Positions 19,849 to 21,492 are shown, counted from the first letter of the stretch. The stretch: DNA of 64,000 nucleotides from Chloroflexota bacterium (GCA_036841525.1 DAITVZ010000002.1:5693-69692), one strand, 5' to 3'. Notes: generated by a model from the letters alone, not told the origin. Numbers and translations are program-made.

Positions 19849-21492
19849 ATGAGCGCCAAGATTCGCGTCTATAACCCCATGGGCTACCCACCCAAGGTCA
19901 CGCCGGTGCGCATGGCGCCCCGCCTGGACACGCTGGAGGGCAAGACCGTCTATCTGGTGGACTGCCGCTTCGATGATGGCGACCTGCTCATGCAGCAGAT
20001 GGCCGCGTGGTTTGCCCAGCACATGCCCTCAGTGCGGACGGTGCTCCGCAGCAAAGCCGGGACGCACCCCGAGGACGACCCAGCCCTCTGGCAGGAGATC
20101 CAGGCCAAGGGCGACGCCGCGGTTGTTGCGGTCGGCCACTGAAGCACCTGCGCGCCGGCGGTCGCCGTGCATTGCGTCACCCTCGAGTCCAAGTATGGCA
20201 TCCCCACGGCCTCGGTGCACACCGACTCGTTCGTGGACGCCGTCACCCAAACGGTCTGGGCGCTGGGCATGCCCAACGTCCGCTTTGTCTATGTCCCCCA
20301 GCCCACCATGGGCAAGTCCCCAGTCGAGCTGCGCGCCTACGTGGATGGTCTCGATCCCGTCACGGGGATACCGGTGATGCGCGAGGTCATCGACGCCCTC
20401 ACCCGGCCGCTGAGCGAGGACGACCAGAAGCAGGTGAGCTTTGACCGTTCCACGCCGCGCTTTGTGGAGCCAGACACCGAAGCGAACCTGCAACAGTTGT
20501 TCATGGATAACCACTGGACCGACTATCTGCCGATTGTCCTTCCCACCGAGGAGCGCGTGGAGGCGATGCTGCGCGCCACCAGCCACCGCCCCGCCGAGAT
20601 CGTGGGCCGCCTGCGCCCCACCTCCACCCGCGAAGCGTGGGAGTTCACCGTGGAGAAAGTGGCCGTGAATGCCGTGATGGCGGGGGCCAAGCCCGAGTTT
20701 TTCCCCGTGATCTTGGCCTTGGCTTCCACGGGCGCCTCGGCGCGCGGCTCCACCACCAGCTCGGCTGCGGCCATGGTGGTGGTCAATGGTCCCGTGCGCC
20801 GCGAGATCCAGATGAACTGCGGCACCGGCGCCATGGGCCCCTATAACCACGCCAACGCCACCATCGGCCGGGCCTACGGCCTCTTCTCCCAGAACCTGCA
20901 GGGCGGGTCTGTCCCGGGCCACACCTACCTGGGCTCGCAGGGCAACAACTATGCCTACACCAACATCTGCTTTGCCGAGAACGAGGAACGCAGCCCTTGG
21001 GAACCCTTCCATGTGCAGAAGGGCTTCCAAGCCGACGAGAGCGTGGTGAGCGCCTTCACCGGCTGCCGCTCCACGGCGTTCACCCTGGGCGTGCGCGAAA
21101 AGTACTGGCGAGAGCATCTGCGCAACCTGCTGCGAGGCCTGGACCCGCACAACGCTCCCACCTTTATCCTGGATCCCATCACCGCCAACTTGTTCGTCGT
21201 CCGCGGCGGGTTTGACTCCAAGGAAAAGCTCATCGACTGGGTCTACGAGAACGCCACCATGCCTGCCGGCGAGTACTGGGACTACCAGCTCATCGTAAAC
21301 TATGTGCTGCCCAAGGCACTGCAGGGGGTGGAGCCCTACGCCACGCACCTGAAGGCGCGCCCTGACGCGCTCATCAAGATGTACCGGCGCGATGAAATCC
21401 AGGTCGTGGTGGTCGGCGGCGAGACGAACGGCTACTGGCGGATCATGGGATGCGGTTACCGCAAGAGCGCCTCCGTGGACAAGTGGAAGTAG
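19849..21492 (+). CDS. probable selenoprotein: N-terminal thioredoxin-like U-x-x-C domain (about 100 aa) fused to a roughly 440-aa domain of unknown function; in-frame UGA (Sec) at 20140-20142
   Basis: The ORF track shows two same-frame ORFs (19849-20142 and 20167-21492) separated only by TGA. Reading through gives ...GDAAVVAVGH-U-STCAPAVAVHCVTLESK..., a U-S-T-C redox motif directly after a hydrophobic beta-strand. There is no ribosome-binding site before the GTG at 20167. A GC hairpin at 20149-20171 starts 7 nt after the UGA. Confidence 0.55.
20149..20171 (+). other. candidate bacterial SECIS hairpin immediately 3' of the in-frame UGA
   Basis: UGCGCG-CCGGCG-GU-CGCCG-UGCA forms an imperfect hairpin of about 10 bp with an apical GGU; the loop G/U lies about 20 nt from the UGA, the typical bacterial SECIS geometry. 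Confidence 0.4.

Follow-up and report, generated by a model that had tools for sequence, protein, structure and literature searches.

A predicted two-domain selenoprotein of the UGSC family in a Chloroflexota genome, divided by gene callers at an in-frame UGA

Comparative analysis of a 64,000 nt stretch of Chloroflexota DNA (GCA_036841525.1, DAITVZ010000002.1:5693-69692; referred to here, at its full length, as the window) suggests that positions 19849-21492 of the forward strand very probably form one gene encoding a 547-residue selenoprotein, in which UGA 20140-20142 is decoded as selenocysteine (Sec). The gene is a new, mis-annotated member of the known UGSC family, and gene callers routinely split such genes. 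Its reading frame was established by direct inspection: ATG 19849, an upstream ATG at 19723, TGA 20140-20142 and GTG 20167 are all in a common frame, which is open from ATG 19849 to the TAG that ends at 21492 with TGA 20140-20142 as its sole interruption. A first-pass annotation, made from the sequence alone, had proposed that read-through of this TGA yields a 547-residue product containing ...AAVVAVGH-U-STCAPAVAVHC..., and our translation reproduced that product exactly, with Sec98 in the peptide context GH-U-STCAPAVAVHCVTLESK. The features of the gene on which the following argument draws are these:

19849-21492 (+): single coding sequence of 547 residues, predicted Sec at residue 98, stop codon TAG at 21490-21492; rendered by public callers as 97 + 441 residues
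20140-20142 (+): predicted Sec codon UGA, residue 98, aligned with Cys (TGC) or TGA in homologs
20149-20151 (+): Cys101 codon TGC, the partner of Sec98 in U-x-x-C, kept in all homologs listed
20152-20170 (+): predicted bacterial selenocysteine insertion sequence (SECIS) hairpin with apical loop GGUC at 20160-63, 17 nt past the UGA, from the local minimum-free-energy (MFE) fold and covariation
19867-20346 (+): UGSC-family domain (Pfam PF24696), residues 7-166, spanning the TGA
20431-21489 (+): C-terminal domain (C-domain) of about 350 residues with the motifs MNxGxGAxGP, FAENEERSPW and VVGGETNGYW

The search space for homologs comprised 5.8 billion proteins, in which thousands of matches were found. 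Homologs of about 550 residues were continuous and 61-65% identical to the read-through product over its full length; the closest relatives (75-80% identity) were all 436-441 residues long, cut exactly like the ORF (open reading frame) called in the window. Each of the 16 full-length homologs aligned (alignment A1) had the sequence GVGH-C-STCAPAV, with Cys in the Sec column, and Cys98 was invariant among 56 homologs. The codon in this column was then surveyed by a scan with one genome per species, which gave 80 loci, and by local tblastn through the site. TGA occupied the same column in approximately 85 genes from five or more phyla, the tblastn alignments spanning residues 1-547 through the TGA. 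The taxa with TGA forms were Caldilineaceae, Anaerolineae, Thermomicrobiales, Opitutales, Rhodospirillaceae, Stellaceae, Altererythrobacter, one gammaproteobacterium, Desulfobacteraceae, Verrucomicrobiia and many Acidobacteriota, and TGC was present in 14 loci from Betaproteobacteria. The U-x-x-C motif itself varied (USTC, USSC, USYC, UDGC, UPGC, UHGC, UEAC and UGGC), the second Cys being present in every gene listed. Orthologs with Cys and a continuous frame at the UGA column, for which the first-pass annotation had advised looking, therefore exist, and conservation of Cys or Sec at this column is total. No homologs of the N-terminal domain (N-domain) ending at this position and followed by an independent downstream gene, an arrangement that would have spoken for a true stop, were found; an apparently stand-alone C-domain protein that was examined (P0185, locus L091, from a low-GC organism) proved to be another TGA-split gene, with ...GVFD-U-GTC... 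at the junction. In Acidobacteriota, two to four paralogs stand in tandem, and every copy has a separate in-frame TGA, U-x-x-C variant and hairpin type (locus L059, at 6283, 8046, 9911 and 12849-, together with L081, L083, L070, L080, L056, L067 and L071-L074), an unusually dense grouping of selenoprotein genes.

The RNA immediately downstream of the UGA provides a second line of evidence. The predicted SECIS hairpin sits in the codons for Ala-Pro-Ala-Val-Ala-Val and consists of a lower stem (20152-55/20167-70, GCGC/GUGC), a bulged C at 20156 and an upper stem (20157-59/20164-66, GGC/GCC), for which a 4 bp alternative (20156-59/20164-67) can be drawn. The first-pass annotation had reported a hairpin at 20149-20171; a hairpin is indeed present, but in a different register, as the structure with the GGUC loop is the MFE fold of 20149-20175 (-10.0 kcal/mol versus -9.4 kcal/mol for the register first reported) and is also favoured by the comparative data. 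The published bacterial SECIS model specifies an apical loop of 3-9 nt with a G within the first two nucleotides, 4 bp or more in the upper stem, a distance of 16-37 nt past the UGA and an MFE of -7.5 kcal/mol or lower (PMC13188914). The window hairpin agrees with this model on every count, with a 4-nt loop starting GG, a stem of 4 bp (or, in the bulged form, 3 + 4 bp), a distance of 17 nt and the MFE given above. Covariation was assessed in alignment A4, a set of 34 distinct Sec-type sequences having the G-U loop in a common register. In this set 76% of cells were paired and double-sided changes occurred in 39 cells, the value for shuffles being 14.1 +/- 2.9. None of 500 shuffles attained the covariation score of 0.375 (0.168 in shuffles), and controls in which the register was slid gave only 0.03-0.17. 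The same stem of 4 bp was obtained independently with RNAalifold, three of its four pairs showing compensatory changes. Moreover, all ten distinct Sec forms compared, which came from Chloroflexota and Opitutales, had G, G, C and C as the third bases of four hairpin codons. These bases varied freely in the 14 Cys forms, and within the same Sec genes the third positions of conserved Gly, Val, Ala, Pro and Thr codons elsewhere were also variable. Synonymous change in the hairpin is absent only where Sec is used, a pattern that indicates selection acting on the RNA rather than on the protein. Other subfamilies of the protein have shifted hairpins with loops GUG, GUC or CGUGA. The hairpin is thus conserved, whereas its absence from relatives had been named at the outset as grounds for rejecting a Sec codon, and the original suggestion of Sec at this UGA is now supported by aligned Cys homologs, by TGA in approximately 85 genes and by a covarying hairpin. 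In decoding of the SelB type, this hairpin, lying directly downstream, would direct Sec insertion at UGA 20140-20142.

One homolog is encoded together with the apparatus that such decoding requires. In locus L042, from an Altererythrobacter metagenome-assembled genome (MAG), a Sec-type homolog is immediately followed, in one row within 6001-13172, by selD, a TrxB-like gene, selA, selB and tRNA-Sec, the last identified by ARAGORN; the NCBIfam scores were 474 bits for selD, 266 for the TrxB-like gene (below its cut-off of 343), 556 for selA and 421 for selB. This island, a selenoprotein gene plus its machinery, is self-contained. In a betaproteobacterial locus with a Cys form (L027, 12562-13632), selA is located about 5 kb downstream (TIGR00474, 492 bits), where it may be left over from an earlier Sec form or from a different selenoprotein.

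The read-through product is assigned to the UGSC family by its N-domain. With Cys substituted for U, residues 7-166 matched Pfam PF24696 with 88.9 bits against a cut-off of 25, so that the TGA falls in the middle of the domain; a resemblance to UGSC-type selenoproteins had been offered in the first-pass annotation as speculation, and this match gives it substance. The score against the NCBIfam equivalog NF041046 (62.8 bits) was below the cut-off of 125, as were those of the long Cys forms P0077, P0084 and P0002 (52-61 bits), and some long Cys forms are already named 'UGSC family (seleno)protein' by NCBI. Because it passes the Pfam cut-off and falls short of NF041046 as the long Cys forms do, the product is placed in a separate subfamily of long proteins inside this known family. 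Structural comparison was based on an AlphaFold2 model of P0002, a 65%-identical Cys homolog (predicted local distance difference test score 84.6; predicted template-modelling score 0.85), the window's own C-domain being modelled separately. In the P0002 model the N-domain is a parallel (beta-alpha)5 structure with Cys98 and Cys101 between strand 90-96 and helix 101-115, which supports a predicted Rossmann/flavodoxin-like N-domain with Sec98-x-x-Cys101 at the end of a strand and the start of a helix. The thioredoxin-fold centre envisaged from the sequence is therefore retained in its local strand/U-x-x-C/helix geometry but not in its fold, which for thioredoxin is a mixed four-stranded sheet having CxxC after beta1, and the domain sizes first estimated, about 100 and 440 residues, are replaced by approximately 170-195 for the N-domain and 350 for the C-domain.

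The C-domain contains the NCGTGAMG motif pointed out earlier, which is conserved, and defines a family of 4149 clusters at 50% identity. It has no Pfam family, the only Pfam match of the whole product at E <= 0.1 being UGSC; against the PDB, profile searches gave E = 0.6 at best and Foldseek returned nothing at E <= 0.001. In most full-length representatives for which a Pfam result was available, the C-domain comes after a UGSC domain. Four proteins, P0189, P0226 and P0229 (709-741 residues) and P0205 (633 residues), have the C-domain with no Pfam-detectable UGSC domain and may represent other architectures of it.

A possible role for this protein is suggested by its neighbours in other genomes, taken from precomputed gene calls. 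The recurrent one is a gene for a thioredoxin-reductase (TrxR)-like flavoprotein of approximately 305-330 residues with a Pyr_redox_2 domain and a CA[TS]C motif, which directly adjoins the UGSC-fusion gene in nine loci (L011, L017, L030, L031, L042, L086, L087, L089 and L090), at times with a gap of only 3 nt or an overlap, and is nearby, 1.8 kb away, in L088. Sec and Cys forms are both represented among these loci, which come from Alphaproteobacteria and Chloroflexota. The flavoprotein is probably a dedicated reductase partner of the UGSC-fusion protein; no fusion of the two proteins was found in a Rosetta-stone comparison. From this recurrent adjacency we infer a relay from NAD(P)H through the flavoprotein to U/C-x-x-C and on to a substrate of the C-domain, a mechanism to which we give slightly better than even chances. 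In such a relay the U-x-x-C pair would alternate between the selenol/thiol and selenenylsulfide states, and reducing equivalents would pass from it to a substrate held by the C-domain; they would be supplied in many relatives by the adjacent, dedicated TrxR-like NAD(P)H flavoprotein and in the window's genome by an unlinked reductase. More tentatively, the long UGSC-fusion protein and its adjacent flavoprotein may together constitute a system, not previously described, in which NAD(P)H drives a selenoenzyme or Cys-enzyme and whose C-domain would be a new fold and family acting on a small-molecule substrate. If this is so, the acidobacterial tandem arrays of two to four Sec paralogs mark substrate diversification.

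Several observations qualify or weigh against this interpretation of the gene and its product. In the window, which is 66% GC, there are 100 in-frame TGAs flanked on both sides by 60 or more open codons, and in 20 cases a Cys occurs within three residues, so that the raw pattern is not rare and the case depends on comparative evidence, namely homology and covariation. As for the hairpin, three of the four pairs in the upper stem are forced by the Pro-Ala-Val-Ala-Val codons, the stem can be formed by half of the Cys forms too, the single-sequence fold of 20137-20200 is no more stable than shuffles (z = +1.41), and no Rfam SECIS family matched at gathering or permissive thresholds, the only match being a chance one to isrG. 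Neither selA, selB, selD nor tRNA-Sec was found within the 64-kb window by ARAGORN and probe searches, in which the E. coli sequences serving as selA, selB and selD probes gave strong matches in L042, a validation of their use. The window also has no TrxR-like gene, its neighbouring genes are not conserved in other homolog loci, and the function ascribed to the C-domain is purely inferred.

It is very improbable, in our estimation, that the TGA is a true stop separating two genes, one for an N-terminal fragment of 97 (or 139) residues and the other for a 441-residue protein starting at GTG 20167. All public gene calls, including those of three ENA assemblies, do split the sequence in this way, the 441-residue piece is recorded by NCBI as a hypothetical protein from a Chloroflexota MAG (NLS79946.1), and elsewhere in the window TGA is an ordinary stop. 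However, division at this point would halve the UGSC domain (residues 7-166). GTG 20167 has no ribosome-binding site, as the first-pass annotation had remarked; we found no Shine-Dalgarno sequence, and the exactly 24 nt that separate the TGA from this GTG encode STCAPAVA, the best-conserved stretch near the site. The Cys homologs are continuous, and the apparently stand-alone C-domain protein of L091 is again a product of an in-frame TGA split. A pseudogene, or an assembly or sequencing error converting TGC or TGT to TGA, has a still smaller probability. The source is metagenome-assembled and a single base change would turn Cys into a stop, yet three independent ENA assemblies show the identical TGA, the 441-residue product is encoded on six to seven contigs, TGA occurs in the same column in approximately 85 genes across phyla with strong downstream conservation, and the synonymous sites of the hairpin are constrained. 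Decoding of the UGA as something other than Sec, whether by read-through as Trp, Cys or Gly or by a reassigned code, would be in keeping with the Sec machinery not being seen in the window, and is nevertheless highly unlikely. TGA is the stop of five well-supported (Pfam-matched) genes in the window, from which we conclude that the genetic code is ordinary and that there has been no reassignment. Furthermore, the residue that homologs place at this position is invariably Cys, which is chemically analogous to Sec, a covarying hairpin of SECIS type follows the UGA, and one homolog is located beside selD, selA, selB and tRNA-Sec. A scan of the window for other TGA read-through candidates gave nothing convincing.

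An alternative that accepts Sec at position 98 concerns its role. Sec98 and Cys101, with His97 and His108, could be ligands of a metal or iron-sulfur centre rather than a redox-active selenenylsulfide pair. A compared domain uses Cys and His ligands to bind [8Fe-9S-C] clusters (PMC12176620), a weak and non-significant profile match (E = 0.6) was obtained to the 'VGMCCTG' region of CODH, and His97 and His108 are invariant inside the subfamily of the window protein. In paralogous subfamilies, however, His97 is replaced by G or L and His108 by A, L or E, and only U-x-x-C is universal. Because it is this pair and not the flanking His residues that is conserved across paralogs, a role in metal binding is less likely than a redox one, and we consider it improbable, with better prospects than any of the alternatives to Sec decoding discussed above; the recurrent TrxR-like neighbour is also suited to a dithiol or selenolthiol relay.

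With the gene read as a single selenoprotein gene, the signals around it are as follows:

19759-19786 (+): sigma-70-type promoter-like site, TTGACA (19759-64), 16-nt spacer, TATGCT (19781-86), a consensus match only
19837-19843 (+): Shine-Dalgarno sequence AGGGAGG, 5 nt 5' of ATG 19849, read directly from the sequence
21516-21551 (+): perfect 15-bp GC-rich hairpin, 24 nt past the stop codon, possible transcript end (z = -2.82)

Both the promoter (TTGACA-16-TATGCT) and the ribosome-binding site (AGGGAGG) that the first-pass annotation had attributed to ATG 19849 were located. The promoter-like site has 10 of 12 consensus matches, and the region contains two such sites compared with 0.5 +/- 0.7 in shuffles. 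Met at 19849 is where the homolog alignments begin and is also the start used by the ENA gene callers. The stability of the hairpin at 21516-21551 was matched by none of 200 shuffles; it was missed by a terminator scan because it has no T-run. A divergent promoter-like site (TTGCCA-17-TAGTAT, 19729-19701 (-), 9 of 12 matches), directed at an RraA-like gene (18926-19660 (-)), occupies the same intergenic region as the promoter of the selenoprotein gene. The whole gene is covered by an antisense ORF (20029-21597 (-), 522 residues), a GC-rich shadow ORF whose 'homologs' in 75 loci are due solely to conservation of the sense gene.

Neighbours of the gene in the window include an RraA-like aldolase, an enolase-superfamily enzyme, an acyltransferase, an MFS transporter and URO-D-like genes; other frequent neighbours in homolog loci are LysR or MarR regulators and carboxylate-type binding proteins. 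Two genes of the URO-D family (MtaA/CmuA-like), at 13960-15204 (+) and 23915-25060 (-), flank the region, and together with the enolase-superfamily enzyme, the RraA-like aldolase, MFS transporters and a GH2 beta-galactosidase they give it the look of a catabolic island. The neighbouring genes hint at organic-acid catabolism or detoxification. Elsewhere in the window are a c-di-AMP riboswitch of the ydaO/yuaA type (48889-49031 (-), RF00379, 80.6 bits versus a gathering score of 38) and a tRNA-Arg with anticodon TCG (61087-61162 (-)), the sole tRNA present.

Every public record that we found for this lineage is wrong, giving either 97 + 441 residues or a 441-residue 'hypothetical protein', and the same mis-annotation extends to a large proportion of a family that comprises over 4000 clusters (50% identity). 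Its correction alters selenoproteome counts for Chloroflexota and above all for Acidobacteriota, with up to four Sec paralogs in a row. UGSC proteins are a recognised family of prokaryotic selenoproteins of unknown function (PMC2398784, PMC1976440, PMC13188914); they were abundant in both the Sargasso Sea and the Global Ocean Sampling metagenomes, with 255 Sec sequences (PMC2398784, PMC1976440), are exemplified by ABI76733.1 of Hyphomonas neptunium and appear in recent reviews as NF041046. Since 2005 they have ranked with the most abundant selenoproteins of environmental samples, without a known function, which is now made testable by the fused C-domain, the recurrent TrxR-like operon partner and L042 with its whole Sec-insertion apparatus.

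In comparison with the classic UGSC family (PF24696; NF041046), the window protein shares the N-domain match and the predicted Sec in U-x-x-C, but its motif is U-S-T-C rather than U-G-S-C and its 547 residues include an additional domain of about 350 residues, whereas classic members consist of a single domain of approximately 150 residues (about 147 for NF041046, which has a literal UGSC/CGSC motif). A 'UGSC/Unknown_1' fusion of a UGSC domain to a conserved domain of unknown function is noted in PMC2398784 (Fig. S1A), an architecture of the same general kind. The predicted SECIS element resembles that of E. coli fdhF, the best-studied bacterial SECIS, as both hairpins are located inside the coding region directly past the UGA. 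The fdhF element has the apical loop GGUC, a bulged pyrimidine at nucleotide 17 and the loop G/U at positions 23/24. In the window hairpin the loop G/U is at 22/23 and the upper stem, at 3-4 bp, is shorter than in fdhF, recognition by SelB being a prediction. Among redox systems, PrdB also has U-x-x-C (PMC2398784, Table 2). The Pfam search, in which UGSC was the only match at E <= 0.1, gave no similarity to GrdB/PrdB (PF07355) or to peroxiredoxins, and the window protein is unlike glycine and D-proline reductases in that there is no evidence of a pyruvoyl subunit and its catalytic domain is without a known relative. What it has in common with glycine and D-proline reductases and their TrxB/TrxA, and with AhpF-AhpC, is a Sec/Cys-x-x-Cys centre accompanied by a low-Mr TrxR-like gene, in the same operon in many relatives, and the proposed relay would formally resemble those in which TrxR/Trx supplies electrons to glycine or proline reductase, or AhpF does so to AhpC.

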